Below are positions 4,959 to 42,725 of a stretch of 64,000 bases of DNA, one piece after another; position 1 is the first letter of the stretch; the number at the start of each line of letters is the position of its first letter. Origin of the DNA: Escherichia coli (lineage in GTDB: Bacteria > Pseudomonadota > Gammaproteobacteria > Enterobacterales > Enterobacteriaceae); assembly GCF_003019035.1 (NCBI RefSeq), contig NZ_CP027447.1; one strand, 5' to 3'. The notes under the pieces were generated by a model. That model was not told the origin of the DNA, ran no database searches, and saw only the letters and a program-made list of their open reading frames with translations. Position numbers and translations under genes: made by a program.

Positions 4959-4982
4959 AATTACCTCTGCATCCTGACGCAT

Positions 4983-18788: not shown

Positions 18789-18814
18789 CACCCGACAGGA
18801 ATTTATGTCGGGTG
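18789..18814 (-). terminator. Stem-loop downstream of ydeM
   Basis: CACCCGACA ... TGTCGGGTG inverted repeat. Confidence 0.45.
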
Positions 18815-18867
18815 CCTTGTTAAGGTCATAAGAAGGAGGCTAAGAATGGAGCTAAGGGGGAGCGTTA

Positions 18868-20025: not shown

Positions 20026-20076
20026 CGCTATCTCGCTCAATAAGGCGGCGGAAAAATCCGCCGCATGAAGGTTTAG

Positions 20077-21759: not shown

Positions 21760-22080
21760 AAATGTTCCTCTTCTTATTGTACTTAATTCCAAAGTAATTT
21801 TACGAAGAGAAATAAGTGGATGTAAGTGAAGTGAGTCACATAAAGAGATAGCAGATTTAGCTAAAAAAAGAGAAATAACAGTCCATAAACTGTTGACATT
21901 ACTTTCTGTTCTACTAAGTAATTTCTCGTTGATAAACAACTAATCTATTGATATTTAACAAATTATTTAATTTCACCGACAAAATACCGAATTGAGATCA
22001 TAAATAATCATGCAACGGGTTATGCAAATGCATAAATATGTGATGGCTGTCACTTATTTATTTCAAGAAATATATCACCT

Positions 22081-22113
22081 AAAAACAACGCGGGGCAGGG
22101 AATGGCTGCCCCA
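22081..22113 (-). terminator. Rho-independent terminator after ydeO
   Basis: GGGGCAG-GGAATGG-CTGCCCC hairpin with a T-run on the minus strand. Confidence 0.7.
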
Positions 22114-22160
22114 TTTAATTCTTACGCAGCGTGTGTGGTTGACTACTCGTTAGCAAATAA

Positions 22161-22922
22161 TCAAATAGCTAAAGCACTCATCGTGTTGTCCGTGTTCATA
22201 CCGGTGTGCCTTTGACAACGGTACTCCTTAGAAACTCTCTTTGGACTGTTGCCGAAATGTTTGCGGAACGCATAAATAAAATAAGATGTACTCGCATAAC
22301 CACATTGTTCGGCAATTTTATTGACTGAACCTTCTACGCGTATCAAATTTTTTGCGTGCTGCATTCTGGCATCTAAAAGAATCTGTGAGAATGTCGTTTG
22401 CTCTTGCTTTAGTTTTTTCTTCAACAGGCTTTCACTGATGTACAGGCAGTCACAAATATCTTTCAGCTTCCATGGGTGCGCCAGCTTCATGTTGACAATA
22501 TTTCTCACTTTCCCGGAAACGGATAGCACACCGTTAGTTAATAGTGTAATGAAACCTTTGCATGCGGCAAAAATAGACAGGCAAGAAAAAAGCAAAAGTT
22601 CTGAAAAATTATGATGATTGCGTTCTTCCGAGTTGAGATAAGCAATCATTTCATTAAGCAATCCAGTCGGTACATTTGAAGCACGTAAAAACTTCGCAGG
22701 AACAGGCACCGTCACTGTCTGGATGTTAGTGCATTGTAGATATTTTTTAATGGTATTTTCATTAAATCCGATTTCTTTAAAATGCCGCTCATAAGGTTCA
22801 AAATGTGTACGAACAGCGTTATCTACCATCAGGATCTCGCCGTCAGAGAAGGCGTAATCTTTATCTAAAATGTTAGCGTTGAAAGCATGATGAATAAATA
22901 TAACAGAACAAACGAGCGACAT
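22161..22922 (-). CDS. ydeO: AraC-family acid-resistance regulator
   Basis: 253-aa ORF with C-terminal AraC-type HTH; downstream of safA. Confidence 0.9.
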   Translation of the reverse strand: MSLVCSVIFIHHAFNANILDKDYAFSDGEILMVDNAVRTHFEPYERHFKEIGFNENTIKKYLQCTNIQTVTVPVPAKFLRASNVPTGLLNEMIAYLNSEERNHHNFSELLLFSCLSIFAACKGFITLLTNGVLSVSGKVRNIVNMKLAHPWKLKDICDCLYISESLLKKKLKQEQTTFSQILLDARMQHAKNLIRVEGSVNKIAEQCGYASTSYFIYAFRKHFGNSPKRVSKEYRCQRHTGMNTDNTMSALAI

Positions 22923-22995
22923 TTTATCTCCTTAAAACAATAAAGTTTTATCGATACCTTTTAAACATTTCACATTTATAATTTGCTGTTTATTT

Positions 22996-23193
22996 TCAGT
23001 CTTGCAAACTATTGATAATGAAATGTGTAAGATCTCTTGCAATGCGACCCATTTCTGAAATACTCAGCTGATCAATTGCCGAAAAAATGGCTATCAACGT
23101 AAGTGTCAGTAATAAGACAACCACAATTACAGACATGATTTCTTTATAGTTGTCTCTTTGCGTGATTTTGTTTTTCACTGTGGTCGCATGCAT
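22996..23193 (-). CDS. safA: EvgS/PhoQ two-component connector small membrane protein
   Basis: 65-aa ORF matching SafA, with a single transmembrane segment. Confidence 0.85.
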   Translation of the reverse strand: MHATTVKNKITQRDNYKEIMSVIVVVLLLTLTLIAIFSAIDQLSISEMGRIARDLTHFIINSLQD

Positions 23194-23304
23194 TTCAAAT
23201 ATGTTTATTTAGCGGATAACGTTAAAAATCGTAAATCAGTATGCTTAATATAACAGGCTGGATAAAAGAGGAAATAGGACTGGTGCTTCAGTACTGAGCG
23301 GAGT

Positions 23305-23320
23305 TTCTTACAGCTGTAGG
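23305..23320 (-). promoter_or_regulatory. Candidate EvgA box upstream of safA-ydeO
   Basis: TTCTTACAGCTGTAGG, an imperfect inverted repeat resembling the EvgA consensus; the same core recurs upstream of ydeP. Confidence 0.5.
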
Positions 23321-23440
23321 CAGAAGTTTATATCTTATAGTATGTAGTTTAATTTAATCCATATGAGCAAATTGCGTGATAATAGTCAATGAGGAATTCT
23401 TCTGCTGTGCGGATGACAGCAGAAGAAATGAGAAGAGGCA

Positions 23441-25720
23441 TTAATTTGATGGTTCTAATTCAACCGGAATACTTTTATAGCCAGGAATGCCACTTAATGG
23501 ATCGTGGTTATCAAGTGTTAGCATGTGATTCGATTCTGGAAAATAGGTCACCAGTGAGCGGTCAGCCATAGGGTAAATGACCACTTTTAATCTATCCATG
23601 CGGCGTGAGCTTCGCTTACCGTCTGGCGTAAGCGCAATAAGATTAACTCTTTCGCCGTTTTTTACACGGCAAATTTTAGCTTGTTTAGCACTCATAAAGA
23701 CCACATCTCGTTGACCGAATACCCCTCGATAGCGATCATCCATACCATAAATCGTCGTGTTGTACTGATCGTGACTGCGTACTGTCGCCATGACTAGCTT
23801 ACTGTTAAACGCTGAAGAGGGATCTTCTAACAGCCCTTTACTGGTAATGAAATTAGCCTTACCTGACGGCGTCATCCAGCGCCTTTCAGCAGCTGCATTT
23901 ATCAGGTGAAAACCACCGGGATGACGGATGCGCTGGTTATAGTCGGCGAACTCTGGCAGCACAGCTTCAATGTCATTGCGAATGCGATCATAATCTTCCA
24001 CCAGATACTCCCAGGCTACCACGCTCTGGGGTAGTGCTGCCTGCGCGATTCCCGCGACCACTGCACACTCTGATTTCAGCATTACACCGGCGGGTTTTAA
24101 CACACCACGCGAGGCATGAATCATCGACATTGAATCTTCAACGGTTACCGCCTGCGCACCGCTTTTTTGCATGTCAATCTCGCTACGTCCCAGAACCGGC
24201 AGAATATAGCTATGCCGTGCGGTCAGCAGATGAGAGCGGTTAAGCTTAGTGGCTACGTGTACCGCCAAATCTAATTGCGTTAACGGTACAGCGCTCGCTT
24301 CCCGATCTGGCATTGCCAGCGCAAAGTTGCCCCCCATGCAGATCAATGCTCGAGCTTGCCCCGTACATATTGCTTGCATGCTGGCAATTGCAGCATGTCC
24401 AGGTGCATGAGGTGGGGTGAAACCATAGCGCTCACCCAGGCGAGCCAGAAACTCTGCAGACGGTTTCTCGGTGATACCGACGGTTCGGTCGCCCTGTACA
24501 TTAGAGTGACCTCGTAGTGGGCAGATGCCCGCACCAGGCTTGCCAATGTTACCTTTCATCAACAGCAGATTGACCAGTTGCTGTACATTCTGGGTACCAT
24601 GTTCGTGCTGAGTGATCCCCATTCCGTAACAGATAATGGTGCGTTCGGCAGCGGCATATGCATCAGCCAGTTCGGCGATTTGAGTCTGACTTAGTCCAGA
24701 AATACGCTCGATATCTTTCCACTCGGAATTGAGAACGTCACGGCGTAGCTCGTCAAAGCCGACGGTATGCGTTTGAATAAATTCGTCATCCAGCAATGAG
24801 GGCCGACCTGCGGCGCTTGCAGCATCATCGCGCTCAATTAACAGGCGCATCATCCCCTTGAGCAACGCCATATCACCACCAATGCGCACGTTGTAGTAGG
24901 CACTGGCCAACTGAGTCTCAGAGTTCGTCAGCATTTCAAACGGGTTTTGCGGTGCGGTAAATCGCTCCAGGCCACGTTCCTGTAGAGGATTGATGGCGAT
25001 CATTTTCGCTCCCCGTTTCACTAAAGCGCGCAACGAAGTCAACATGCGAGGGTGGTTTGTACCAGGGTTATGCCCAATGCAAATGACTAAATCGCATTTC
25101 TCAAAGTCTTCCAGCAACACGGTCCCTTTACCTACACCGATACTCGCTGCCAAACCCACACTGGTCGGTTCATGGCACATGTTGGAGCAGTCGGGGAAGT
25201 TATTGCTCCCGTATTCACGGGCAAAAAGCTGATAAAGAAAGGCAGCTTCATTGGAAGTGCGGCCCGAAGTATAGAATTCAACCTGATTGGGATCACTATA
25301 GCTTTGAAGGCGTTCGCCAATTTCGTCGAAAGCTTGTTGCCAGCTTAATGGCTTGTAACAGTCGCTGACGGCATCATATTTCAAAGGCTGGGTGAGACGC
25401 CCCGCAGCCTCAAGCTCGTGATCTCCCCAGGTAAGTAATGATTGAACCGTATTCTCAGCAAAGAAAGAGGCATTTACCTGCTTATCCGTGACTTCCCAGG
25501 CGATTGCTTTTGCGCCGTTTTCACAAATGTCGAATGACGCACTGTGCTTAGGATCTGGCCATGCACAACCCGGACAGTCAAAGCCCTCTGGCTTATTCAT
25601 GTCAAACATGGCAATAACATCCTGGCGTATATCCATCTGCTTACGTACTGCATTCGCTACGGATTTAACAGCACCCCAACCACCGGCAGCCCCCTGGTAG
25701 GATTCAATTTTTTTCTTCAT
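23441..25720 (-). CDS. ydeP: Molybdopterin-family oxidoreductase (acid resistance)
   Basis: 759-aa ORF matching YdeP. Confidence 0.9.
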
Positions 25721-26052: not shown

Positions 26053-26967
26053 TTATTCATAGATAAAAGTGACACCAATGACTGACTGGACGGTTCCGGC
26101 TGCAACCTTGTTTCCTGTTTGTCCATAGGTTGCGCTTAAACCCAGAGGTACTTTGCTTTTATTTACTGTCCCCAGGGAGACGTTTTCTCCCGTAGCCAGT
26201 ATTTTTCCATTACGCATCAGAGAGACACCCACTCCCGATGCTTTTGTTGCATCTGGTGCTGTGTTAGCAAACACTTGTCTGGCACTGTCAGTGGTAGCAC
26301 CCGAAAGATAAAATGAGAGCTTTTGTTCACTTGAGCAATATACGCCAAGGGGTATTTCTGCGCTTCCAGGAAAGTCAGGGAGATTCACGGTGACATTACG
26401 ACTATCAACGGTGCAGCCGCCTGTTGGCATAACAACACTGTTATTTGAAATAATATTCCACGTAAAATTACGCGGATTTCCGCTTCCTAACGTGGCAATT
26501 TTATACATATGAATACGGGCAATAACTTCCCCAGCTTTTATGACAACTCCACCGGCCGCACCGACTGGGGTAATATAGAGTTTTAACGGTAATGGCATCG
26601 GTGTCTTATCACCAATATCTAATACATTAGTATTTGTCGTCAACGGGAAGGGGTAGGTCACATTATTCCAGTACAGCGATCCTTTATATGACTGTAGGGA
26701 GCCTGCGAAAGCTGAGCCTTGTACCAGGTTTATATGATCAGTGTCGTACCAGCCGCCGTAATCATTCCAGCAACTTATATGCTGAGACAAGTCTACAACC
26801 AGATTCTGGCCCGGTTGTATTACAGGGTCGAGATTAACATAAACAGAGGTTGTACCTGCTCCAATACTTGACCCGCCATCGACATTACAACTGAAGGCAA
26901 AAACTTTGCCTGCCATTAATAGAAGATAAATACTGAACAGAACCTTTATACTGAATGTTTTACCCAT
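26053..26967 (-). CDS. ydeQ: F9 (Fml-type) fimbrial tip adhesin, FimH-like
   Basis: 304 aa, alignable along its length with FimH as I recall it (…VYVNL.PV…GQNLVVDLS……VTFIY). Confidence 0.85.
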
Positions 26968-27025
26968 GATATATCCTAAGGTTAAAAAATTGATTTAAAT
27001 AGAGGCAAAAAAAATCAAATTGATG

Positions 27026-27529
27026 TTATTGCCAGGTATAGATCACATTGATTAGCGACTCGATCGTTCCCTGGCTTGCGTTTCCATTCACCGTGATAGC
27101 TCTTGCCTTAAGTGGAAACTGTGCATTACGAGTGATCTCATCAACAATAACCGTTTTGCTATCGCCATTTTTTAACGTCGCATCCTGGTCATCCCTTAGC
27201 TCTATCTGAATATTTTCGGCAGTACCTTCATTTTTGTAATAACCCGTATTGTCAGTTGAACCTGTCACGATTGCCGTCACTGCACTTGTTTCAATCGGAC
27301 AATCGGTTAATGACAAAGTAATATTGTGCCAGCCAGATGCAGAACCAGGTTGTTGCAGATTGCGTGTATAAAGATCCCCGAGATTAACGTTAGCTTCTTT
27401 GGTTTGAATAGTGCATGGTTTAGCGACTACCCGACCATTAACAGTGATAGTGACATCGGCGGCCTGGAGAGTTGCTGTGAATAATGTGCAAAACGTAGCT
27501 AACAGGAACCTCTTGTGAAGTCTTTTCAT
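27026..27529 (-). CDS. ydeR: Fimbrial minor subunit (FimG-like)
   Basis: 167-aa ORF with signal peptide; pilin-like. Confidence 0.85.
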   Translation of the reverse strand: MKRLHKRFLLATFCTLFTATLQAADVTITVNGRVVAKPCTIQTKEANVNLGDLYTRNLQQPGSASGWHNITLSLTDCPIETSAVTAIVTGSTDNTGYYKNEGTAENIQIELRDDQDATLKNGDSKTVIVDEITRNAQFPLKARAITVNGNASQGTIESLINVIYTWQ

Positions 27530-27541
27530 ATCTGACTCTGA

Positions 27542-28072
27542 TTATTGAAATTCAAGGGTAAAGGTTGCCGAAGCGCTCACCAGTCCAGGATTGACGGACT
27601 TCTGAGTTGACTTCAAACGAGCGGAGTAAGGCAAAATATTGTTCTGTTCTGGTACCAATGGGATCCACTGCATCCCGGCATGAAGGTCATTCAATTTCAC
27701 CGGACGCATATTTCCGTCCAGTATTTCTATACCCAAACCGGAGGCCGTATTGCTTCCTTCATCCAGTTTCAACAGAGTATTATTTTCTGCATCCTCAATA
27801 CCGTTAAATGCAACCCGAACTCCCGTTGTCCCTTTGCTGCATTCACTTAATGTAATCTGAAAAGGGACGGCTGGACTTGTGCTACCGGTCGTTGGAAATT
27901 GTCTGGCACTGTTTTTTTGGAGATCTACGGTAAAATTAAGCGAATCCGATGAGACTGTGCAGCCATAATCGAGGACGCGCCCGCTAATTTTAATAACGCT
28001 ATCTGCAGATAAAGCAGAATAGGTGGTTAACCCCAGACATAAACCGAGGAAAATAATGTTATTGTATTTCAT
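27542..28072 (-). CDS. ydeS: Fimbrial minor subunit (FimF-like)
   Basis: 176-aa ORF with signal peptide; pilin-like. Confidence 0.85.
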   Translation of the reverse strand: MKYNNIIFLGLCLGLTTYSALSADSVIKISGRVLDYGCTVSSDSLNFTVDLQKNSARQFPTTGSTSPAVPFQITLSECSKGTTGVRVAFNGIEDAENNTLLKLDEGSNTASGLGIEILDGNMRPVKLNDLHAGMQWIPLVPEQNNILPYSARLKSTQKSVNPGLVSASATFTLEFQ

Positions 28073-28085
28073 AATCTATTGTTCC

Positions 28086-30737
28086 TTAGCGACAGATTGC
28101 TGTCTGCTGGTTCAGTAAGGTACCAGGAGAAACTTCAGGAAGCTTGTACTCGACAATACAGTTTGAGTTTTTATCTTTGCCCCATGAAACCTGTAATTTC
28201 CCTGACTGTGGAAGTCCAGTCAGATAAACCTGACCGTTTTCCGCGACAATGCTGCCATTTTTATTCTCTCCATGTGTGACAATTGCACCGAATGGAACGC
28301 TCTTATTACCGTACTTCAACGTCATTAATACTTTCCCGCCGATTTGTGCATTAAATGTTGCTCTGGCAATAGCACCGTGAGTTGGGATGACAGTGACAAC
28401 GGTTTCATCCAGTTCAACATTATCTGCAAGGGAATTCGCGTTAAGAGCGACACGATTTTCTCTATATTCTGTCGCAAATGGTAATATGGCATAGCCACGC
28501 CAGTCGGTATGAATTCCGGTCTGGTTCTCTATTTTGACATTATCAGCGCCAGGAGCCTTAACCAGAACCATTGTGTCGCCCAGCGGCTGTCCAAAGGTGA
28601 TGCCATCAGCATGAGCAATAATCCCACCACTCATTCCGTAATAAATCTGGCTGCTGTCACCACTCCGACTGTAACCGACATTCGTATTACCGTAAGCTCC
28701 ACGATAATTAAGAGAACTGTAACCACTGGTGCCAGACGATGTATTACCCCCTTGGGTGTTACCGACCTGAACGCTATAATTCAGGTTATTATCCGGCAGC
28801 AGAGTGCCATAAACCCCTGATAGGTTGGTCATGCCGCCTTTCAAATCGTTTGACATACTGTAACTGGCGTTTGAATTACGAAATGCCGACTGACTGTCTG
28901 TACGCATCCAATGACTGAAGGGAACATTAAGCGTAAAAGCAAGTAAATGATCCCGATCGTTTTGCCATATATTATTGGAATAGCTGTAATTCAGCGAAGT
29001 CGTAATATCACCAAACGGCACATTTAATCCAAATGATATTTGCTGGTCGCTGCGTGACGTGTTCCAGTAACTTTGGCGACTGGCACTGAAAAATGTCGTA
29101 CCGTAATGTCCAAGCTGCTGAGAGATGCTTATTTGTTCCTGACCACGCTTACTGTAAAACAGATTAAAATAATCAATAAATAGTGTCTGCTCATTGCTGT
29201 CTCCGGTAGGAGGCTTGACGGTGTAACCACTCATTCGACTGTATGCACTGTCGGATAAGTTATAAAAACCTTGCGTAGAATAGCGATATCCTGCGACCTG
29301 GATATTGGTTCCCGTCTGGTAGAAGGATTTGCTGTAGACGGATTTAACCGATTGCCCGCTGTGACGGGTGCCATCTGCAAGTGTCGTATTGGCCTGCGTG
29401 ATATCGAAAGAAAAGGCACCAAAAAGTCCTAAATCTTTACCAATACCAAGGTTGAAGGCCTGATATTCTTCTGCAATTTGTATTCCGCCATAAGGTGTCC
29501 AGTTTCCTTTCAGACCATGCATCAAGCTTGCTTGTACGAACTTGGGGGAGCTTTGCAGGTTATTTCCACTACGATATTCCCCCATGGCAAGCGCATAACG
29601 CGTATATCCAGCACGTTGGAGAACCGGAACAGACGAATAAGGAACATATAATGTCTGAATACTGCCGTCTGCCTCTTTTATAGTTACTTGCAGATCACCA
29701 CCATTGGCCGCAGAGTTGATATCATCAATAGTAAAAGGGCCGGGTGGAACAGTAGTCTGATAAACATCGTATCCGTTCTGTTTTACACTCACTTGTGCGG
29801 TGCCACGGGCAATACCATGAATCACCGGAGCGAAACCATGTTGGCTATCGGGCAACATCGCTTCTGTTGAATTTATTTTTAGGCCACGAAAGTTCACACT
29901 ATCAAAAATATCGCCATCGGTATAACTATCACCTACCGTTAAGCGTGAGCGTAAGGGAATAATGTCACGTTCAGCCGACGTATTGATATGCTGCCATTTA
30001 TTGCTGTCAGATGAATTGCTACTCCCACTGTTATAACTCCACGTTGAGTTATCGCGCAGTCGCCAACTACCAATGTTGATGCCACTCTGTAAATTCAAAT
30101 ATGCATAGTTGGATTTTCCAGCATTATGGTTACTACGATTATTAATAGAATTACCATTAAAACTATAGTTTAGAAGCCCAGCATTTATTCCTTCTTCCCA
30201 CAGATCAGGAGAAACATAGCCGCGAGCCATTCTGCCAACATATATTTGCGGAACGGAGAGTGACAGATGTTGCTGACCAACATCAAACTCAGATGATGCG
30301 TCAGCCAAACGATCCTGGAGTGGTGTGCATGCGCTGTTGTCCGGCACATGTTTTTCTGCCGAATGTTCCTTGTTGTCTAATAATGCTGATTTTTTTATGC
30401 CAAGACTGACAAGAAGGTCTGTACTCAGGCATGGGATGAGATCTGCGTTATTATCATCTGCAATAAAAGTAATATCCCGACTAGTCATAAATTCGTCGTT
30501 CAAATAAATGTCGACCCGATATGTACCAGGTGGTGCCTCGCGCCCCTTAGTAAAGGCGGATAAATCGACAGATTCAGCAAGATCATTGCTTAAAAACCGT
30601 GGATTAAAATAATACTCTGCGTCAACGGGAAATACCGCAGTTGCTAAGCCAAGGGCAATGGTAAGCCGTGCAAAGCGAGGCAGTAGTAACACCTGATGCA
30701 TACGATATGCCTTAAATGCGGCACGAAAGGCTGTCAT
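28086..30737 (-). CDS. ydeT: Fimbrial usher, full length (FimD-like); ydeT is a fragment in K-12
   Basis: 883 aa, collinear with FimD (…YFNPRFL… to …CR); exact start uncertain (M1 or M13). Confidence 0.85.
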   Translation of the reverse strand: MTAFRAAFKAYRMHQVLLLPRFARLTIALGLATAVFPVDAEYYFNPRFLSNDLAESVDLSAFTKGREAPPGTYRVDIYLNDEFMTSRDITFIADDNNADLIPCLSTDLLVSLGIKKSALLDNKEHSAEKHVPDNSACTPLQDRLADASSEFDVGQQHLSLSVPQIYVGRMARGYVSPDLWEEGINAGLLNYSFNGNSINNRSNHNAGKSNYAYLNLQSGINIGSWRLRDNSTWSYNSGSSNSSDSNKWQHINTSAERDIIPLRSRLTVGDSYTDGDIFDSVNFRGLKINSTEAMLPDSQHGFAPVIHGIARGTAQVSVKQNGYDVYQTTVPPGPFTIDDINSAANGGDLQVTIKEADGSIQTLYVPYSSVPVLQRAGYTRYALAMGEYRSGNNLQSSPKFVQASLMHGLKGNWTPYGGIQIAEEYQAFNLGIGKDLGLFGAFSFDITQANTTLADGTRHSGQSVKSVYSKSFYQTGTNIQVAGYRYSTQGFYNLSDSAYSRMSGYTVKPPTGDSNEQTLFIDYFNLFYSKRGQEQISISQQLGHYGTTFFSASRQSYWNTSRSDQQISFGLNVPFGDITTSLNYSYSNNIWQNDRDHLLAFTLNVPFSHWMRTDSQSAFRNSNASYSMSNDLKGGMTNLSGVYGTLLPDNNLNYSVQVGNTQGGNTSSGTSGYSSLNYRGAYGNTNVGYSRSGDSSQIYYGMSGGIIAHADGITFGQPLGDTMVLVKAPGADNVKIENQTGIHTDWRGYAILPFATEYRENRVALNANSLADNVELDETVVTVIPTHGAIARATFNAQIGGKVLMTLKYGNKSVPFGAIVTHGENKNGSIVAENGQVYLTGLPQSGKLQVSWGKDKNSNCIVEYKLPEVSPGTLLNQQTAICR

Positions 30738-30778
30738 TATTAATTCCGATTGAGTTTATTATTAATTAGGTCACTGGC

Positions 30779-31498
30779 TTACTGCATGGTTGCCTTAATA
30801 CGCGGAGTTAATGCACCGTAATCATTGATCGTCTGAAAACTGATATCCCCGGTTGCAACATGCGGGATATCCACCGATACTTCACCTTTTGGCGGCACCA
30901 TGGTGTTTGGGAGATTGCTATTTCCTGCTTTCATATTTGTTACGGTAATGAAGTAGGGCGTTGGATTAATAAGAGTGAGTTTGCTACCGCTGCGACGAAA
31001 CCGAAGCATTGCTGGCGCTTCTTCAGGTGCCATTGCCAGGTTCGTGGGGCGATAAAACATTTTTATGCGGCTAATAATTGCCAGCTGTAATGAATTCTCA
31101 TTCTTCTGGTCTTTTTCCATAGCAGGAATAGCTTTAACATTAACCCAGAACAGGCTTTCACGGTCGCCTGGTAACTGATGATTAGTGGCGTTGATTATCC
31201 GCAGCGTATTCTCTTTTTTACCTTGCATGGAAAAAAGCGGTGGGGTAATGACAAACTGGGTGTCTTTTTGGTCACCTGCATTTTCTATCCATGACTGAAT
31301 GAGATAGACACTGGCAGGATCATTATTCGTGACAGGCAATAAAACCTGTTTCTGGTTTGCCGGATAAATTACCCGCGTCGCACCAAGTGCGACAGCTGCG
31401 TTGGCAATGGTGCTATGGCAAGCAAAGAGCAATAAAAGTAACACTGTCGCCATAAAGGAAACAGAGTAGGGGGTACGCGTAGTTTGCATCTGATGCAT
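30779..31498 (-). CDS. Periplasmic fimbrial chaperone (FimC-like)
   Basis: 239-aa ORF with signal peptide and PapD-like features; absent from K-12 at this locus. Confidence 0.85.
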   Translation of the reverse strand: MHQMQTTRTPYSVSFMATVLLLLLFACHSTIANAAVALGATRVIYPANQKQVLLPVTNNDPASVYLIQSWIENAGDQKDTQFVITPPLFSMQGKKENTLRIINATNHQLPGDRESLFWVNVKAIPAMEKDQKNENSLQLAIISRIKMFYRPTNLAMAPEEAPAMLRFRRSGSKLTLINPTPYFITVTNMKAGNSNLPNTMVPPKGEVSVDIPHVATGDISFQTINDYGALTPRIKATMQ

Positions 31499-31851
31499 TC
31501 TCCATGTGTTAAGAGGATAAGCGGGAAAACCGTTACATCAGACAATCAGTAAATGTTGCTAATACATTGGCGACTCGCCGGGTTTCCAGACTTAATGCGT
31601 TTGTAATAAATGTTGGTTCTCTTTTAATAGGAAAACCTTGCTACAAAGTAAATATTTTAAATAACAGTAAGTTTAACTACTGTTGTTTATTGATCGTTTA
31701 GATATTATGTGATTTTTTCATACCGCTCCAAAACACAAACTATTCCTCATTAATAATGAGATGAACATTGGTGAATTGCTCGGGTGTGCGTAGCCATGCC
31801 ACACACACCCTGTTTCAATTTCAGATGACGTATAGCCACCTTAAGATTGAA

Positions 31852-32415
31852 TTATAGATATTGAACTTTGAAGGTCGCATCTGCGTTTGCAGTACCAGCT
31901 ACTGACTGCCCGAGAGCAATATATCGAGCCTGGAACGGCAATATATTCGTGCCATCAATCAAGTCAGTTTTAGCGCTAAAAGTGGCACCATCAAGTATTA
32001 ATACCTCCCCCGTACGGTCCAAAATTTGAATACCAACATTTTGGGCAGAGCCTGCCGCTGAACTCTGCAGCGCTAACGTATCGTCATTACTGGTGACAGT
32101 AGTACCCAGGAATGCAACAGCTGCATTACTGGAAACATTGGTATCACAATCATTCAACTTGATATTGAAGCCAACGGCAGAGCTGAGGTCACCCGCTTTA
32201 GCCAGGCGAGAAGAACGGACCTGACCCAGCTCAACCGTTTGGTTCATTGATTCTGAATCAATCGCACAAGCGGCATTTACCACTTCACCTTTAAAATGAA
32301 TAACACCGCCATTAACAGTGGTCGTTACTGATTCATCACCCTCGGCTGCGCTTACCGCAGCAGACGACATCGCCAACACAGAAACGACAATCATACCGAC
32401 ATGTTTGAGTTTCAT
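31852..32415 (-). CDS. F9 major fimbrial subunit (FimA-like)
   Basis: Start taken at [23 protein letters not shown] (signal peptide); C-terminus …[10 protein letters not shown] is pilin-like. Confidence 0.8.
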
Positions 32416-32848
32416 AATTCTCCAAAATTTATATTTAAGTAGCTGAATAAAGAAAGTTAACAATCAAGTCATTCTGTTATTGCTTATAAAACAAGAATCA
32501 TTCTTGATGGGATATTGCCCTGAGAATATAGTTTCCGGGGTTATTACATTTCACGAAGAACGATAATATCTTTAAATTACAAGGACACCTAATCACAACA
32601 AGTTTATTGCAGCACTTGTTGTAGAGAGTATTTGCAAAGACATTTTATGTCGCTAAATAACATGACAATTTCATTATGCATGTTATTTATAAACCGTGAC
32701 TAAACAGAATATTATTGCGAACAAGGGAAGTGTCAGGAAAGGTCAAGAGCGACCAATGGCTTATATGGCTATAAATCATTAGCTATAGTTAATGTTTGCC
32801 TGGTGTAACTAACACGGAATTGCTCTAAACAGATAAGTGCAGGGTTTA

Positions 32849-33103
32849 TTAAAGCTGACCGACAGACTTTCTTAACCTGGTAATATCTCTCTTAGGTGAC
32901 TCTCCAAACATCCGCGAATATTCCCGACAGAAATGGGATAAGCTTTCGTAACCGACAACATAGGCTGCAGTGGTGACATCGTAATGTTCATTCAGCATCA
33001 GTCGCCTGACTTCATTGAGGCGTAGCCATTTCTGATACCGGAGTGGACTCATTCCCGCAAGCTGTCTGAAGTGTTGATGGAAAGAGGGGGTGTTCATTTG
33101 CAC
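32849..33103 (-). pseudogene. yneL: AraC-family regulator remnant (HTH domain only)
   Basis: 84-aa ORF containing only an AraC-type HTH; no intact N-terminal domain upstream. Confidence 0.65.
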
Positions 33104-33383
33104 GCGGTTTGCCAGCCTGACTCTTCAACGCAGGGAAGATGCGGCAAACGGCAAACCTGCATACCAGCCAGCCTATATCCGGTATGCACAGGCCAATCAT
33201 GAAAGAGGAGAGGCTTTATGTTCTGGAACCCTGAAGTAATAACGACGACCGAAAAATCGCTTCGCATCACTCAAATTACATTTAACATAATATACATTAT
33301 GCGCACCAACATAAACCAAGGGAGAATCCAGTCGTTGGCGGTCATGATTGTCCTGCTCATTAACAACGGCCAAACCCCATATC

Positions 33384-34706: not shown

Positions 34707-34972
34707 TACCACTCCAGATCTTGCTGTTCTGTTGATTCTGGCGAGGCATTTTTCGTGTCGCATAGCGTCATTGAGAGTTCAAGCGACTGTAAAATCTTAA
34801 AAAATGTCGTGAGCGTGGTATTGTCAGGGTTGTTTTCGAAATTGGAAATTGTCGCCTGCTTAATACCGATTTTTTTCGCCAGCTCGCTCTGCGTCCAGCC
34901 ATTTTGCTGACGAACCAGTTTCATTGCATTCGCTAATTGCGTTGGGTTATAGATCTTCTGAAAGCTCATCAT
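34706..34972 (-). CDS. hipB: HipB antitoxin (Cro/C1-type HTH)
   Basis: 88 aa from MMSFQKIY. Confidence 0.93.
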   Translation of the reverse strand: MMSFQKIYNPTQLANAMKLVRQQNGWTQSELAKKIGIKQATISNFENNPDNTTLTTFFKILQSLELSMTLCDTKNASPESTEQQDLEW

Positions 34973-34983
34973 GTCATACGTCC

Positions 34984-35097
34984 ACAGCATATTTATCCGC
35001 TCAAGGGGATATTATCAGTTTTATCCTTTAGTGGGGATAAAGTCAATCAGGAAACACATCTTATCCGCTCTACGGGATAAACACTGTGATATCCGCG
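34984..35097 (-). promoter_or_regulatory. hipBA promoter with four HipB operators (TATCC-N8-GGATA)
   Basis: Perfect TATCC-N8-GGATA at 34984-35001, 35012-35029, 35052-35069 and 35080-35097. Confidence 0.9.
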
Positions 35098-35182
35098 ATC
35101 GCGGATAAAAAGGAGGATTTAAAAGTCGTTTGAAGTCGGCAATATTAAGCCGCATGCATCTTCGACATGCGGCTTATACGGT

Positions 35183-38100
35183 TTACCAGCTATATTTCAC
35201 ACCCAGCATGCCCTGAGTATCGCTATAGCCTTTATCACCTAGTTGCACACCGACATTCCCCCACAGGCTAAGGTTGTTATTTACTTTCGCCTCAACCCCG
35301 GTACGTACTTCACCGAGATTACGCGCACCATCACGGCTTACGTTTTGACCATTCATCTTCACGGCGTAGACTTTGCTGTTGTTGATCCAGTTCGCTTCAA
35401 TGTAAGGCTGGAACTCACGCTGTTTACCATTGTCACGCTGGTGATGACTGTTCTGGTAGGTTTTCACCCCAAGTCGTGTTTGCACGTTTCCGTCTCCTTC
35501 CGTTTCAATGCGTGTTCCGTCTTTCCGGGTATGGTCAGAATCTTTCACACCCATCCAGGTGATTTGTACCTGTGGCTGGACGTACCAGGTATTCAGCGTC
35601 CCTTCGCTGCCGCTAAATGTTCCCGCTTCAAAGGTATACCCACCCTCAACAGAGGCCGTCACACCGCGAGAATCATAGTCGTCAGCAGAACGGTTATCGG
35701 AACTGACGCTGTTATCAAACCAGTTATACAGCGCCCAGCTGTCAACATAAGCGCCGGTCTTATTCGCATCGTTCTGATACCAGGTCGCGTACAGTCCTGC
35801 GCTGTAACCGCTGATGCGCCCATCCGATTTATAACCCACATGATTACTCTGAGTATTACTGTGCTGATTGGCATAGCCTGCCATCACGCCGAGATGCCAG
35901 CGATCCTGCGCGTTGCTACTCCACTGCGCCAAATCGCCGCCTAGCTGCAATACATAGCGGTTAGCCTGAGTATTTAGCTGACCATCACCGGTCCTGAAAC
36001 GTTCGTGCCCTCCGACATGACGCATCCATATACTGGTTGCCGAATCCTGAACTCGCAGTGAATCTGTATACTGCGGCTCACCCAGACGGTCGTGTAAGCG
36101 ATGGCTAAACAGCGAGTTGGCTGCGGCAATGTTGCTGATATAGCTTCCGGCCTCCGGGCGATAAACTGATGGGCCTTCCGGATCCACAACAGGGGGATTA
36201 TTGATGGGATCGGGTGTATCCGCTGGCGTTACGCCGTCCCATTTACTGGTCAGATACCAGTTTTTCTCGTCATTCCCCTTCCCTTTAGCCAGCGTGTAGA
36301 CGTAAGCCCCAGCTTCGACAGTTCCGGTGGTCAGCGCGAAGTTACCTGCAGAATTACCGCCAACCTCAATGAGTTCAATACCGTTGACCGTTTGTGCACC
36401 GACGCCGCCAATGTTATTAACCCGAACGCGGGTATTGCCCTGCGTATCACCTTTTACGTTCATTTTATCCGTGGGGGAATTATCGCTACCCAGCGTCGCG
36501 TTGAACGTCATCAGGCCATTGTTTCCGGTATAGTTACCGTTAACGGTCAGTACATTCCCCGGTTTCCCCCCTTCGCTGTTCATTTGAACCGTGCCACCAT
36601 TCTCCAGGTTACCGCCGACAGTGGTTTTAGCGACACGCAGTGTCCCCCCAGGCATAACGTTCACATCACCTGCAGTGGTGACATTTCCCGACATCACACC
36701 GCTGTTATGGATATTAATGTGCTGACTTGCCATATTAATGGCAGAGTCGGAACCGAAAGCAATTTCACCACCCACGATATCCGTCGTACCCTGGTACGCC
36801 GCGGAATCGTTGTTAAGAGTCAGGATCCCGGACCCCAGTTTTGTCACACCGCCGCTACCGGTGATACTGTGCGTCATCGCCCAGCTACGCTCAGTGGAGA
36901 TGGTGAGCAGGCCATTATTGATAACGGAAGCATCACCCAGGTTTTTCTGCTCGTTGACGCTGAGCGCGCTGCCTGTATCAATGTTGAATTGCCCCACAAA
37001 GCGGCTATTATCGCCATCCAGCTCTACGTCTGTCCTGGCGGTTGCGCTCACGATACCCTTCCCGCTTATGCTATTACGCAGTTCGCCGGTCACGTTTTTT
37101 AGCGTTAACAGACCGTCATTGGCAATATTTCCTCTGCCTAACCCCTGCGTATTATCGAGGCTGACTTCCGCATTTGGGCTAACGCTGGTTAACGCATTGT
37201 AGCGTGCATTAAGCCCCTCGATAGCCAGCGTTCCCCCTGTAACATTCAGGTTTCCGCCACCTGTCAGTTCACCCTGACTGATCCCACCTTTATTCACCGT
37301 CAGCGACCCTTCTTTGAACAAAACAGTCGAACCCATCTGCCCGGTGAATGTCTCTACCGTCTGCGTCGATCCATTAAGATCGACGATGGCCGCGTTGCTG
37401 ATGTTCAGTTCCCGGGTGTTGCCCAGCGCGCCATCCGCATCGGTACGTAATGTCCCCATCTGAACGTAGGTTGCCCCCTGATAGTCGTTCTGACCGTTGG
37501 AAAGCGAAACCTGTCGCACCGTATTGATTGCCAGATCCCCTTCACCACCGATTTTTGCCGACATATCGGCCGTTGCGCCATAGGCTCCGCCATGTTCGGC
37601 TAATGTCAGCTTTTGCCCACCATGGATGTTCAGCGCTTTCAGCCCATAGTTAACGTACAAACCATCACCTGGTGCGGTCGTGAGGCGGAATCCATAATCA
37701 CCCTCGGCGACCACCGTTCCGTTTTGCGCAATGTGTAACGTTTTGTCCGCTTCCACCTCGTCGCCCTGTAAATCACGTAACGTTAATGAGCCACCCGACC
37801 CAATAACCGTTTGCGCCTTCACCAGTTGAACGCCGACATGGTTATCATCGTGTTCCAGCAAATTGAGCGTCGTCAGAGGGTTATTCGCCATGGGATCATT
37901 CCACGGTTTAGGCACGTCGATAAGCACGTCGCCCGTCCCGTTTACCTGATAGTTACGGCCTTTCCAGGTGTAGTCACCCGCGCCGACAGCCAGCGTATCG
38001 ACGCTGATATATCCCTCCGCAAGCGTCGCAGCAGGTATATCCGTATCGAAAGTGAGCGTACCGCCATTCATGGCTAGTCCACCAATGGATTGCTCTCCCA

Positions 38101-40603
38101 CGTTTACCGATGTGGTATTTTCACTGTCAGACTGAAGCATCGCGTGAGTAAGCGCAGCGGTGTTGTCGCGTTCCAGTGTGAAGGTACTGTCTTTCAGTTG
38201 GACAACACCGGCGAATTCAGTTCCTGTTGCATGGGTAAAGCCAAACATTTTGTCGGAGGATGACAGCTGCACTCGCATCAAGCCATCGCCTTTGAGCGCA
38301 TTGGTCAGCGTGTAATCTCCTGCGCTGTTCGTTGATGCGAGAATGTCGAGCGTACCGGGGCTTGCAATGGTGACTTCACTCGAACCCATGCCCGTTACCC
38401 CATCTGCCGTATGTGACGCAATGGTCAGGAGGCCGTCATTGACCAGCGTTTTACCGCTATAAGTATTCCCTGCATTGAACACCGTATGGCCTGCATCATG
38501 TATCACTTTTCCGTCTTTATCGTCACCCGTAATCAGCATATCGACCTGGTAGCCGGCATCACTGTTATTGGTATGATTAAAGACAAAAACACCTTCGCCA
38601 GAACCAAACTCTACTTTCGTCGCGTTGGCGATAAACCCGGCATCTGCCGCCGCCTCACCGTGAGCAGCACCAATGTTTAGCGTTCCTACAGCAGGTTCAA
38701 AAAGACCTAAGTAAACTTCGCCACCTTCGACATTCAGCGTGCCGTTATTCGTCAGGGTTAACGTACCCGTACCAGACGTCCCTACATTCATATTGAATGT
38801 TTCAAGAAGAGAGTTCTGCCCATCCACCCGCACGTCGCCCTTACTTTTGTCATTCAGAGCTATCTGTGTATCACGCGCTTTAACTATACCTCCGGTGGTA
38901 ATATTCAGTTCACCCGTACCTAATACACCGACCTGTAGCAATTGGGCGTTAGTAGATGACGTTTTTAAATTCCAGAGACTATCCGTTGAAATATTAACTA
39001 TCCCCTTACCGGAGGCATTTCCTCCGATAAATCCATAGCCCGTTGAATTAAGGGTGGCACCATTACTGACATTTACGATGCCGCTACCAAAATTACCGAC
39101 ATTGATACCTACAGTATCGAACGATGATGTCGCATCCATCAGGTTCAGTGTGCCGATACCGCTTGCTTTATCGCCCAAAAAAGTAATATTTTGCGATACG
39201 AACTTACCGCCATCGCTGATATTGAGGTTTCCGACGCCCGCAACACCAATGGTGGTGTAGACATTCTTATTGACCTCCCATATCCCCCCCGTGGTGATGC
39301 TAACCTTCCCGACGCCGGTTTCTCCATAACCGAGTGAACTTCCTCCGTTGCTGACAACAAGCCCCTCATTACTGATATTCATTTCGCCGTGGCCGTCATA
39401 ACCAAGATTAGTTCCGAGATTAGTGATAACGGAGTTCTTATCCTTAACAGTAATGTTGCCTGTGCCTGTTTCTTTCATCCCCGCAGTGATAATTCCCGAA
39501 TCTACTTTGCCTTCACTAGAGACATTAAGTTCACCGTCGCCAGCATCACCGATATAGATATAGCGGAAAGCTTCGCCCGTTCCGAGGAAATTCCAATGCC
39601 CTTTATCGGTCACGTTGACGACACCGTGGGAACCGTCCTGAACGCCCACCAATGAATATTCTTTGTTATTAATCAGTCCATTATTGGAAATATTGACTTT
39701 GCCATTACCGAAATATCCATTATAGAGTCTGCGTACCGTGATGACAGAGTCTTGATCCTGCACATTCAGGGTTCCGATACCGGTGGCATTGCCTCCGATA
39801 ATCGTATTTTCAGCCGTAATTAGCCCACCCTCGCGAATAGTCGCTTCCCCAGTTCCTTGATTACCAATTTGAAATTCAATTGAGGAATCGTTATTTTTTA
39901 TTAGCCACTCACCGCCCTTTTCAACGACAACCTTACCATTACTGTTCGCTTGATATCCTACAGTGGCGACTATTGAACTCGTGACGTAACCCTTATCCGT
40001 AATATTTAATGAGCCCGTACCGTAACTCCCTATTTCGAATAATTCGGTCGTCAGAACCGAGTCCTCTCCCTCAACATTAACCGTCCCGACGCCTCCTGTC
40101 GAAGAACCTATCCTTAAATATCCTCCGTCAACGTGACCCTTCTGTTTAATATTCAGCGTCCCCGTTCCGGATTGACCCACATTTAAAGGCCTTGCATTAT
40201 TTCCGCTATCATACAATCGCCAGGTCCCACCCAAAACATTAACGGTGCCCTCCGAGTCCTCATTAGCGCCAATGACGCTGGTAGTAATAGTGGTTAAGGA
40301 AGCATTACCGCCAGCCAAAATATTAAGCACTCCAGTGCCATACCAGCCAACCAGGTAGGCATCATAAGCAACATCAGTATCAATATTGGTAATCTGACCA
40401 TTATCAACTTCCAGACTCGCACCAGACGCTGAACCGCTTAGTGCCAGCAAAACACCCAGCGTCAATCTACTGAGTTTCGTTGTCAGTCCAGAGGATTTAC
40501 GCAAATTAACCGTCGATGTTTTACCTACCCTGCGAGTTAATTCAGAGCAGGCCTGAAATACCTGTAGAGTGCAATTCCATATCACGCGATAGATTCTATT
40601 CAT
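35183..40603 (-). CDS. yneO: AIDA-type autotransporter adhesin, intact 1806 aa (yneO/ydeK pseudogene locus in K-12)
   Basis: Extended signal peptide MNRIYRVIWN…; repetitive glycine-rich passenger; C-terminal beta-domain ending …GVKYSW. Confidence 0.85.
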   Translation of the reverse strand: MNRIYRVIWNCTLQVFQACSELTRRVGKTSTVNLRKSSGLTTKLSRLTLGVLLALSGSASGASLEVDNGQITNIDTDVAYDAYLVGWYGTGVLNILAGGNASLTTITTSVIGANEDSEGTVNVLGGTWRLYDSGNNARPLNVGQSGTGTLNIKQKGHVDGGYLRIGSSTGGVGTVNVEGEDSVLTTELFEIGSYGTGSLNITDKGYVTSSIVATVGYQANSNGKVVVEKGGEWLIKNNDSSIEFQIGNQGTGEATIREGGLITAENTIIGGNATGIGTLNVQDQDSVITVRRLYNGYFGNGKVNISNNGLINNKEYSLVGVQDGSHGVVNVTDKGHWNFLGTGEAFRYIYIGDAGDGELNVSSEGKVDSGIITAGMKETGTGNITVKDKNSVITNLGTNLGYDGHGEMNISNEGLVVSNGGSSLGYGETGVGKVSITTGGIWEVNKNVYTTIGVAGVGNLNISDGGKFVSQNITFLGDKASGIGTLNLMDATSSFDTVGINVGNFGSGIVNVSNGATLNSTGYGFIGGNASGKGIVNISTDSLWNLKTSSTNAQLLQVGVLGTGELNITTGGIVKARDTQIALNDKSKGDVRVDGQNSLLETFNMNVGTSGTGTLTLTNNGTLNVEGGEVYLGLFEPAVGTLNIGAAHGEAAADAGFIANATKVEFGSGEGVFVFNHTNNSDAGYQVDMLITGDDKDGKVIHDAGHTVFNAGNTYSGKTLVNDGLLTIASHTADGVTGMGSSEVTIASPGTLDILASTNSAGDYTLTNALKGDGLMRVQLSSSDKMFGFTHATGTEFAGVVQLKDSTFTLERDNTAALTHAMLQSDSENTTSVNVGEQSIGGLAMNGGTLTFDTDIPAATLAEGYISVDTLAVGAGDYTWKGRNYQVNGTGDVLIDVPKPWNDPMANNPLTTLNLLEHDDNHVGVQLVKAQTVIGSGGSLTLRDLQGDEVEADKTLHIAQNGTVVAEGDYGFRLTTAPGDGLYVNYGLKALNIHGGQKLTLAEHGGAYGATADMSAKIGGEGDLAINTVRQVSLSNGQNDYQGATYVQMGTLRTDADGALGNTRELNISNAAIVDLNGSTQTVETFTGQMGSTVLFKEGSLTVNKGGISQGELTGGGNLNVTGGTLAIEGLNARYNALTSVSPNAEVSLDNTQGLGRGNIANDGLLTLKNVTGELRNSISGKGIVSATARTDVELDGDNSRFVGQFNIDTGSALSVNEQKNLGDASVINNGLLTISTERSWAMTHSITGSGGVTKLGSGILTLNNDSAAYQGTTDIVGGEIAFGSDSAINMASQHINIHNSGVMSGNVTTAGDVNVMPGGTLRVAKTTVGGNLENGGTVQMNSEGGKPGNVLTVNGNYTGNNGLMTFNATLGSDNSPTDKMNVKGDTQGNTRVRVNNIGGVGAQTVNGIELIEVGGNSAGNFALTTGTVEAGAYVYTLAKGKGNDEKNWYLTSKWDGVTPADTPDPINNPPVVDPEGPSVYRPEAGSYISNIAAANSLFSHRLHDRLGEPQYTDSLRVQDSATSIWMRHVGGHERFRTGDGQLNTQANRYVLQLGGDLAQWSSNAQDRWHLGVMAGYANQHSNTQSNHVGYKSDGRISGYSAGLYATWYQNDANKTGAYVDSWALYNWFDNSVSSDNRSADDYDSRGVTASVEGGYTFEAGTFSGSEGTLNTWYVQPQVQITWMGVKDSDHTRKDGTRIETEGDGNVQTRLGVKTYQNSHHQRDNGKQREFQPYIEANWINNSKVYAVKMNGQNVSRDGARNLGEVRTGVEAKVNNNLSLWGNVGVQLGDKGYSDTQGMLGVKYSW

Positions 40604-41132
40604 ATAAACGCTCCATATACAAACAATACAGCCACGAAAGAGATGAGTCGCCAGACATTAAAAATGAAACTTATTAAATTGTCAGAGGTCTGTATTGAGT
40701 GTTAGTTGGAGATGGGAAGGTGTCAATTTGGCTAATTTGCTAATGCTTTCGAATTGATAGATTAAAAATTGCATAGTTCTTATTTTATTTAAAAATGAAC
40801 TATGAGTTATTGTTGCTTAATAAGAAAAATGTTTCTTTCAATAAGAAAATTACCATCATCATATTTAACAAAGAATAGCACCAATTGCTAAAAAAGAACT
40901 CTATTAAAACTCTTTTTCATTCATTTATGCTTTTAGGAATATTCGCTATAAAATAAGGGTTATGCTTAATGCTTTAAGAAAAATAGCAATTTCCCCTTGA
41001 ATATAGTACTGGCGATGGAACGATGAATCTGCAAGCTGGCATTTAACAAGCCAGTTCTAAAAGAAGGGAAATAAGAATAACTATACTCAAAAACTAACAG
41101 CCACGGTCATCATGATGTGGCTGTCAATGAAA

Positions 41133-42725
41133 CTATAACCCAGGCGCTTTCCATAACGACGTCGTCAGTCCATGATCAACCAGCCCCAGCTGATCCTGAT
41201 AAACTGCCTGCCACTTATCGCGTGAATCCTGATAAAGTTCATGCTTTTCTGGGTCTGGTGTGTGCGTCCGTTCCCAGCGAACCAGGCGTTCTCCGGTTTC
41301 TGCCATTGATGAAAAAATTCCGGCACCGACGCCAGCTGCAATGGCACATCCTAATGCAGTGGCTTCTTTGACCACCGGAATATTGACGGGTAATCCCGAG
41401 ACATCAGCGAGAATTTGACTCCATAATTTCCCTTTTGAACCTCCGCCTGCAAAGACCAGAGCGGTGGGATGAATATTCGAAAAATCAGCAATTTGCTGCA
41501 AGTTACACGCTGATACAATCGCCGCATTTTCTTCCAGCGCACGGAACAATGTCGCTTTGTTACATTTATCCGGGTCAATGGACAAGTTAATAAAGGAAGG
41601 CGCAGCGTGATACCAGGTTTTAAAGCGCATTCTGTCGGAGAATATCGGCATTACGCCCCACGACCCAGGCGGCACCCGACTGGCCATCTCTTCAAGCAGC
41701 GTATAGGTGTCGATGCCTAAACGTTCGGCAATCAGTTTTTCTTCGGCACAGAAAGCATCGCGGAACCAGCGCATGGTGAGTCCGGTAAAAAAGCTTATAG
41801 ATTCAGCTTGTACCATGCCAGGAATAACATGGGGATTAACGCGCACGTTCATTTCTGGGTCTGTCACCGGCGCGGCTAAGTTTACAACTTGCTGCCAGAA
41901 TGTACCGCCAAGAACCGCGGTTTGTGCCGGACGGACAACGCCTAACCCCAGGCAACCAAGCTGCACGTCACCTCCTCCAACGACCACCGGAGTGCCCGCC
42001 TTCAGACCGCAGAGTTCCGCCGCTTGTGAACTTACCACGCCCAGCAATGTGCCGGTTTCTTTGACAGGAGAAAGAATATCGGCCCGCAGTCCGGCCATAT
42101 CCAGCAATGCAGGTTTCCAGTCACGGGTGGTTAGATCAAGAAGTCCCGTGGTGCCAGCGTTAGAGGGATCCACCGCCAGTTCGCCGCTGAGCATATAGGC
42201 CAGCCAGTCGCTGATCATGGTGATGGTCGACGCCTGTCGGTAGATATCGGAACGATGGTGCGCCAGCCAAAGTAATCTGGGGATGGCGCTTAAAGCCAGC
42301 GTTTGCCCGGTCGCTCGATAAACTTTGTTTTCAAAGGTATTGTTGTGCAGTTCTTTAAGTTCGCTAACTTCGCGCGCCGCTCTGGCATCCACATTGGCGC
42401 AGGCCCAGATCGGTGTTCCATCATTGTTATATAAAACAATGCCTTCACGCATCGAACATGCCGAAACGGCAGCGATATACTCCGGGGCTATGCCGGCGTT
42501 GTGCAGCGCCTGGCGCATACACTCACACGCCAGTTGCCAGTTTTTGTTGAGATCAAATTCCATAGAACCAGGAACGTCCGGTACTGCCAGGTGCCGCCAC
42601 TCCGCCTGTCCCACGGCTATTTGATTGCCTTCCAGGTCGAATATCACAGCCCGAATACTTCCGGTACCTGCATCCAGCGCCATCAGGTAATACTTTGATT
42701 CTGAAGGGGTAAAGAGTCGAGCCAT
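41133..42725 (-). CDS. lsrK: Autoinducer-2 kinase
   Basis: 530-aa FGGY-family kinase matching LsrK. Confidence 0.93.

Follow-up and report, generated by a model that had tools for sequence, protein, structure and literature searches.

Several AIDA-type autotransporters are among the closest described systems for the gene considered here, which lies in a 64,000-nucleotide (nt) stretch of Escherichia coli DNA (contig NZ_CP027447.1; hereafter the window) and encodes a protein of 1806 amino acids (aa). AIDA-I and TibA are glycosylated adhesin systems with an adjacent heptosyltransferase gene (aah or tibC); the repeats of AIDA-I are about 19 residues long, and Ag43 is phase-varied by Dam/OxyR. MisL and ShdA of Salmonella and YfaL/EhaC of E. 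coli are large chromosomal adhesins of the AIDA type, and phase-variable autotransporters with poly-G or poly-C runs occur in Bordetella, Neisseria, Haemophilus, and Chlamydia. Gut colonization, aggregation, and biofilm formation are influenced by adhesins of this class, which serve as display scaffolds as well. The gene in the window belongs to NCBIfam family NF011422, named for ECSE_1600 of SE11, a commensal strain. The genome paper of SE11 describes ECSE_1600 as an autotransporter of 1806 aa that contains a pertactin motif and reports the gene to be intact in both SE11 and HS; copies in MG1655, E24377A, and O157 Sakai are disrupted, and three B2 strains lack the gene (PMC2608844). We consider it quite likely that the gene in the window is an intact copy of this chromosomal ECSE_1600 family autotransporter and the functional counterpart of yneO in K-12, that it encodes a type Va protein that is likely an adhesin, and that it is probably silenced by H-NS.

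Both sequence and position place the gene in the ECSE_1600 family. NF011422 matches residues 1-1806 of 1806 without a gap at 4110.2 bits, compared to a curated cut-off of 2335, and the gene is located between hipBA and lsrK. The 5,950-nt interval made up of the gene and its upstream spacer (35183-41132) shows 100% identity to the corresponding chromosomal DNA of E. coli SCU-301 (NZ_CP051751.1), which was isolated from a rectal swab of a healthy student and in which RefSeq labels the coding sequence (CDS) "ECSE_1600 family autotransporter" (WP_096986979.1). At the same position, K-12 carries the pseudogene yneO (b4696; formerly split as ydeK, b1510, and ydeU, b1509), which is 5422 nt long compared to 5421 nt in the window and about 96.7% identical to the window allele at the DNA level; amino-acid identity of the window protein to the main 1806-aa protein clusters is about 97%. 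The start of hipB is 210 bp downstream of the autotransporter stop codon and is followed by hipA, and the flanking order of ddp, dos, gad, yde fimbriae, hipBA, autotransporter, lsr, and mar is the ordinary K-12 gene order. The hipB and lsrK neighbors are shared by SCU-301, K-12, E24377A, and O111 11128, and in O26 11368 lsrK is present on the upstream side, which was the side checked. The first-pass annotation of this DNA had assigned the gene to the yneO/ydeK pseudogene locus beside hipBA, and the K-12 comparison confirms this. The finding is correct, and the gene is already catalogued, widespread, and ordinary.

The gene is a single uninterrupted open reading frame (ORF), as had been reported, with an ATG start, 1806 sense codons, a stop codon, and no internal stop codons in its translation. 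Its G+C content is 50.2%, compared to 47.2% for the whole window. Homopolymer length at this locus varies between related assemblies, raising the question of whether a miscall could mask a real frameshift and make the gene appear intact. For example, the O111 reference 11128 has a G8 run where the PacBio O111 assembly RM9322 has G7, the Swiss isolates N196 and N2456 are otherwise identical and differ at two G runs, and runs of six and seven G are found within the gene in the window. We nevertheless give almost no credence to an assembly artefact, as the ORF and the family model are identical in length and align without gaps, the same 5421-nt ORF is found in eight other independently sequenced genomes, and the window allele lacks the two longest G runs.

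The domain set of the protein is that of a monomeric type Va autotransporter: a Sec signal peptide with an extended signal peptide region (ESPR), a beta-helical passenger with an autochaperone, and a C-terminal barrel on the same polypeptide. The extended signal peptide, long repetitive glycine-rich passenger, and canonical AIDA-type C-terminal beta-barrel that the first-pass annotation had recognized were each recovered in domain searches or structural models. Pfam ESPR (PF13018) matches residues 1-48 (E = 3.8e-14), and cleavage of the signal peptide, judged by eye from the sequence, is probably near A62/S63. Residues 11 and 19, both inside the ESPR, are the only cysteines in the 1806-aa protein. 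Some relatives are labeled "autotransporter barrel domain-containing lipoprotein" or "putative lipoprotein YdeK"; we rejected this label here, as the end of the hydrophobic core (residues 47-62) has no cysteine nearby that could form a lipobox. At the other end of the protein, Pfam Autotransporter (PF03797) matches residues 1525-1784 over model positions 1-254 of 255 (E = 4.6e-42), TIGR01414 scores 404 bits compared to a cut-off of 16, and the AIDA-I transport unit (4MEE) aligns with the last 462 residues through the final one (E = 3.3e-88). The junction between passenger and barrel is matched by Pfam AC_1 (PF18883) at residues 1332-1438 (E = 2.9e-26), by Pfam Pertactin (PF03212) at residues 1335-1452 (E = 6.3e-11), and by the IcsA autochaperone 3ML3 (E = 2e-18), with IcsA 5KE1 matching as well. 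By analogy with the family, a segment within residues 1453-1524 would form an alpha-helical linker spanning the pore.

The passenger comprises approximately 1,390 residues, and its predicted fold is an elongated beta-helix in two sections, the first resembling Ag43 and TibA and the second resembling AIDA-I, IcsA, and pertactin. Glycine makes up 14.9% of the whole protein and 17.9% of residues 62-660, and the motif G-x-G-x-[LV]-N-[IV] recurs between residues 89 and 645 about every 25 residues (spacing 24-30). Eight stretches of this N-terminal module match the TIGR04393 repeat (168 bits). An AlphaFold2 model of residues 55-700, made from an alignment of 36 relatives, had a predicted local distance difference test score (pLDDT) of 93.1 and a predicted template modeling score of 0.92, and it shows an all-beta solenoid of regular three-strand coils. 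The best Foldseek matches to the N-terminal module were Ag43 (4KH3, 7KOH, 7KOB) and TibA (4Q1Q), with E-values from 1e-6 to 1e-4. Relatives of the module number 3,191 among 1.84 billion representative proteins, and the repeat is therefore widespread. In the second section, Pfam PATR matches residues 1253-1281 (E = 3.7e-5), with sub-threshold matches at residues 704-728 (E = 0.026) and 1034-1053 (E = 1.2-1.3). The AlphaFold2 model of residues 640-1460 had a pLDDT of 76, and its Foldseek matches were SepA, Hap, pertactin, IcsA, and Ag43 (E = 4e-6 to 2e-4).

These comparisons identify relatives of parts of the protein. AIDA-I is the nearest of them in its secretion apparatus: autochaperone, linker, and barrel align over 462 residues, and both proteins have an ESPR, a beta-helical passenger, and type Va organization. 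The passenger in the window differs from that of AIDA-I in being about 500 residues longer and in having coils of about 25 residues. Orthology to AIDA-I was rejected; NF033176 scored 343 bits compared to a cut-off of 1200, and only residues 1070-1805, the C-terminal 40%, align. No heptosyltransferase gene (aah or tibC) is found beside the autotransporter gene, and no glycosyltransferase is annotated in the window. In the modeled N-terminal module, Ag43 and TibA appear to share the three-faced right-handed beta-helix and provide the best structural matches, but sequence identity is 14-17% and TM-scores are low (0.2-0.6) because length and curvature differ. No Dam/OxyR arrangement like that of Ag43 was seen at this gene. 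The C-terminal third also matches the NCBIfam models of MisL, ShdA, and YfaL/EhaC, whose passengers are unrelated to that of the window protein outside the junction region. Orthology to MisL, ShdA, and YfaL was likewise rejected, with scores of 467, 206, and 198 bits compared to equivalog cut-offs of 1297, 2249, and 1459, respectively.

If the protein behaves like other members of its family, the precursor would cross the inner membrane via Sec, slowed by the ESPR, and the beta-barrel assembly machinery (BAM) would insert the barrel. The passenger would then be exported C-to-N as a hairpin, with its C-terminus first, and the autochaperone would nucleate folding of the passenger as a surface-exposed beta-helical rod. 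The likeness of the fold to Ag43 and TibA, together with the lack of a catalytic domain, suggests that this rod would most likely be an adhesin or a factor in cell-cell aggregation and biofilm formation.

The spacer upstream of the gene extends from the autotransporter start to the lsrK stop codon at 41133. It had been described as about 530 bp of very AT-rich DNA, which agrees with its measured length and composition (Table 1). Its 200-bp core is 21.5% G+C, and no stretch of equal length in the window is richer in A+T, with 0.09% of 529-nt windows being equally AT-rich. Among seven alleles the spacer is well conserved, and the promoter, ribosome-binding site, and start codon are kept. The orthologous yneO-lsrK spacer of K-12 was found by genomic SELEX (systematic evolution of ligands by exponential enrichment) to bind RpoD holoenzyme, with CTGACA-17-TTTAAT as the predicted promoter and an H-NS site marked (PMC3946193, Table 2). 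The K-12 spacer is also among 78 "promoter islands" that are described as being bound by RNA polymerase and H-NS and as transcriptionally unproductive (PMC3661553, Table 1). The promoter in the window was located only via the published K-12 sequence; the 29-mer is unchanged from K-12 and occurs in the window once, compared to 0 matches expected by chance. By analogy with the K-12 spacer, the window probably has a weak sigma-70 promoter within an H-NS-coated spacer of 529 bp, and the gene is probably not expressed under ordinary laboratory growth conditions. Rfam, run at gathering thresholds over the whole window, returned no RNA family, and therefore the spacer contains no known riboswitch or small RNA.

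Two smaller features of the spacer were also observed. Directly past the lsrK stop codon, at about 41086-41124 on the minus strand, we noted by eye an inverted repeat, ACAGCCAC-N12-GTGGCTGT, followed by TAGTTTTT. This hairpin and T-run are probably the lsrRK terminator, which would insulate the autotransporter gene from lsrRK read-through; a generic terminator scan missed the hairpin because its loop is longer than 8 nt. The spacer of VCSW7 has a 21-bp tandem duplication of ATTTTTCTTATTGAAAGAAAC (alignment columns 312-332) and a 6-bp deletion nearer lsrK, indicating that the spacer tolerates small length changes.

The gene is common in E. coli. The 5,950-nt interval was matched in 4,366 of 5,426 complete genomes, with at least 80% coverage in 3,958 (73%). 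The allele in the window represents a minority lineage, as identity to it reaches or exceeds 99% in only 5 of 4,368 records and is about 97% in the rest. Twelve matches taken at even steps down the ranking were inspected for intactness, and eight had an intact 5421-nt CDS; the other four are annotated as frameshifted. Taken at face value, and with a wide confidence interval, this implies an intact copy in roughly half of all complete genomes. In the protein database, the canonical 1806-aa form far outnumbers any other, with two clusters of 5,726 and 18,868 members, and there are also many individual variants (1400-1714 aa) that carry in-frame deletions. The copy in E24377A is likewise an in-frame deletion variant, of 1327 aa, and not a frameshift. 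Thus, the intactness of the gene in the window is not unusual, given that members of the family are canonically 1806 aa long and that most of the sampled carriers are intact. Compared to eight other intact alleles, the window allele has a synonymous divergence (dS) of 0.07-0.095 and a ratio of nonsynonymous to synonymous divergence (dN/dS) of 0.14-0.17, or approximately 0.15, and the gene is therefore under purifying selection. By region, dN/dS is lowest in the autochaperone (0.045) and highest in the proline-rich spacer (0.70). The synonymous divergence and genome-typical G+C content are consistent with a long-resident gene rather than with one acquired recently. The first-pass annotation had proposed a xenogeneically silenced adhesin promoter. 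Silencing is supported by the binding of RpoD and H-NS to the K-12 spacer and by the identical 29-mer, whereas "xenogeneic" fits the spacer only; the term is unfit for the ORF because of its G+C content, its fixed site in about 73% of genomes, its dS, and its dN/dS.

Several observations weigh against the reading of this gene as a functional, probably H-NS-silenced adhesin gene. Within the otherwise beta-helical second section of the passenger, residues ~854-1009 (window ~37577-38044) have a pLDDT below 50 in the model and no domain match. This region may be an inserted subdomain or may reflect a shallow alignment, and it could hold something besides beta-helix. If so, these approximately 155 residues might give the passenger a non-adhesive activity, such as that of a protease, lipase, or toxin. 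We regard such an activity as very unlikely, because a Pfam and NCBIfam scan of all 1806 residues found no catalytic domain, including no protease domain of the serine protease autotransporters of Enterobacteriaceae (SPATE) type, because the folds matching the first module are those of the adhesins Ag43 and TibA, and because matches to SPATE proteins are confined to their beta-helical stems. With respect to regulation, the H-NS binding data come from DNA of K-12, a different strain from that of the window, and a generic promoter and terminator scan of 34900-41300 gave counts equal to those of shuffled controls, with nothing in the spacer. In addition, no functional study of the ECSE_1600/yneO protein from any strain turned up in the searched literature, in which the mentions found were genome descriptions, SELEX tables, an entry for ydeK in a CpxR-regulon table, and mutation lists. 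Because no experiment on the protein turned up there, the role in adhesion or aggregation proposed here is drawn from fold and family only.

Loss of the gene is the last of these observations. No match is found in roughly 20% of complete genomes, and 4 of the 12 sampled carriers are frameshifted; frequent loss and breakage, together with the reported absence from B2, argue for a dispensable or niche function. A stronger interpretation is that the ORF in the window is open but cryptic, a permanently silenced relic heading to decay as in K-12, O157:H7, O26, and O111. Beyond the frameshifted carriers, this interpretation can draw on independent lesions in K-12 (one added G), O157:H7 (an 8-bp duplication), O26 11368 (a frameshift in a shorter gene), and O111 11128 (an IS3-family insertion), on the many in-frame deletion variants, including that of E24377A, and on the description of the K-12 spacer as transcriptionally poor and H-NS-bound (PMC3661553). 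However, a dN/dS of about 0.15 over a dS of about 0.09 indicates long-term purifying selection on intact alleles, including that of the window, the 1806-aa form predominates in the protein database, and the promoter, ribosome-binding site, and start codon have been retained. We therefore consider a cryptic relic unlikely and favor a gene that is maintained intact and probably silenced by H-NS under laboratory conditions.

Several of the sampled lesions in the gene are found at runs of G. At ORF nt 3955, intact K-12-like alleles have G7, K-12 has G8, with one extra G, and the window has G6 followed by A. Thus, a single base accounts for the loss, in K-12 yneO, of a gene that a large proportion of natural E. 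coli keep intact. The K-12 locus (14 kb) has three G/C runs of at least 7, all of them inside yneO, and in the window the G7 run at ORF nt 1314-1320 is the only G/C homopolymer of at least 7. Both of the other runs are interrupted in the window allele, the G8 run at ORF nt 3831-3838 by synonymous changes. Among sampled carriers, CFS3273 has gained a G in this G8 run, N196 has lost a G there and gained one in the G7 run at nt 1314 (G8 in that strain), and HUM3355 has lost a G at ORF nt 156.

A census of ORF nt 3831-3838, based on exact 52- to 63-mers in the 5,426 complete genomes, covered 4,022 of about 4,055 carriers. The in-frame G8 state was found in 2639 genomes, G9 in 365, G7 in 303, and the interrupted form present in the window, GGGTGGTG, which encodes the same amino acids, in 715. 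Among genomes with uninterrupted runs, 668 of 3,307, or about 20%, are out of frame (G9 or G7). The G9 state was confirmed in the O26:H11 reference 11368, an assembly independent of the PacBio O26 records that show G9. The census mixes real changes with possible errors, and part of the poly-G length signal is likely sequencing error, because the O111 assemblies disagree and N196 and N2456 differ at G runs; the window has no further G8 run that could act as a control. The census suggests a simple route by which lineages could repeatedly lose, and perhaps regain, the protein. The G8 run within the ORF and its G7 and G9 states in many E. coli strains are reminiscent of the poly-G and poly-C phase-variable autotransporters, in comparison to which the E. 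coli runs are shorter than classical contingency tracts and the window allele has no G8 run. It is conceivable, though we consider it doubtful, that expression of the common A/B1/E-type alleles is switched on and off by mutation of the G7-G8 runs, which would form a simple-sequence contingency locus of a kind rare in E. coli; the window allele, which uses GGT codons for the same V-G-G-E and has an A after the second run, would then be "locked-on," which could explain its intactness.

Current understanding of autotransporters is unchanged by these results, and the interest of the gene rests on its function and on possible poly-G switching in other alleles. The value of the gene is chiefly practical; cloning of the window copy, a clean allele of full length, could reveal the role of this large surface protein. 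Features of the gene and its spacer are listed in Table 1.

Table 1. Positions of features of the autotransporter gene and its upstream spacer in the window
Feature	Window coordinates	Strand	Basis or remark
Complete CDS, ECSE_1600-family autotransporter (1806 aa + stop)	35183..40603	-	ORF list; translation; SCU-301 RefSeq CDS at identical place; NF011422
C-terminal translocator beta-barrel, residues 1525-1806	35186..36031	-	Pfam PF03797; TIGR01414; 4MEE
Proline-rich spacer and putative pore-spanning linker, residues 1453-1524	36032..36247	-	Aligns with corresponding part of 4MEE
Autochaperone/pertactin-like junction, residues 1332-1452	36248..36610	-	Pfam AC_1; Pertactin; IcsA 3ML3
Second passenger region, residues 661-1331, predicted mostly beta-helix with PATR repeats	36611..38623	-	Pfam PATR; NF033176 alignment; AlphaFold2
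G6 run then A; site of K-12 frameshift (ORF nt 3955); interrupted G7 run	36644..36649	-	Alignments
GGGTGGTG, interrupted form of G8 run common elsewhere (ORF nt 3831-3838)	36766..36773	-	Same V-G-G-E encoded
N-terminal passenger module, residues 62-660, predicted ~22 coils of ~25 residues (T5SS/PEP-CTERM-associated repeat)	38624..40420	-	TIGR04393; motif spacing; AlphaFold2
G7 run, coding strand, ORF nt 1314-1320	39284..39290	-	Homopolymer count
Extended signal peptide, residues 1-61	40421..40603	-	ESPR motif MNRIYRVIWN; basic n-region; hydrophobic core LTLGVLLAL
AT-rich upstream spacer, 529 bp, 31.2% G+C, orthologous to K-12 yneO-lsrK spacer	40604..41132	-	Composition; seven-allele conservation; SELEX
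Ribosome-binding site GGAG, 7 nt 5' of ATG	40611..40614	-	Read directly from sequence
Sigma-70 promoter-like element CTGACA-17-TTTAAT, ~54 nt upstream of ATG	40657..40685	-	Identical to promoter predicted for K-12 yneO

Other observations concern the surroundings of the gene in this and other strains. In E24377A (own coordinates 11982-19803 and 20278-24261, stretches that also take in the 1327-aa autotransporter variant), hipA is shortened, and the adjoining block, with genes for a Zot-domain protein, a GspD-like secretin, and a replication initiator, looks like an integrated filamentous phage. In O111:H- 11128 (locus coordinates 14751-21431), the IS3-family element splits the autotransporter gene, and in O26:H11 11368 (locus coordinates 1-6453), a frameshift is likewise present in lsrK, which adjoins the shortened and frameshifted autotransporter gene. 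These Shiga toxin-producing E. coli strains have pseudogenes in place of several lsr genes. Between hipA and the fimbrial operon of the window, a helix-turn-helix gene remnant (32849-33115, minus strand) is annotated as a pseudogene without its N-terminus; it corresponds to yneL of K-12. The fimbrial operon itself is a complete chaperone-usher operon (26053-32463, minus strand) encoding a fimA-like major subunit, a chaperone, an 883-aa usher, ydeS, ydeR, and ydeQ, and its K-12 counterpart retains only ydeQRS and a truncated usher fragment (ydeT). Thus, a second adhesion locus beside the autotransporter gene is also intact in this strain.

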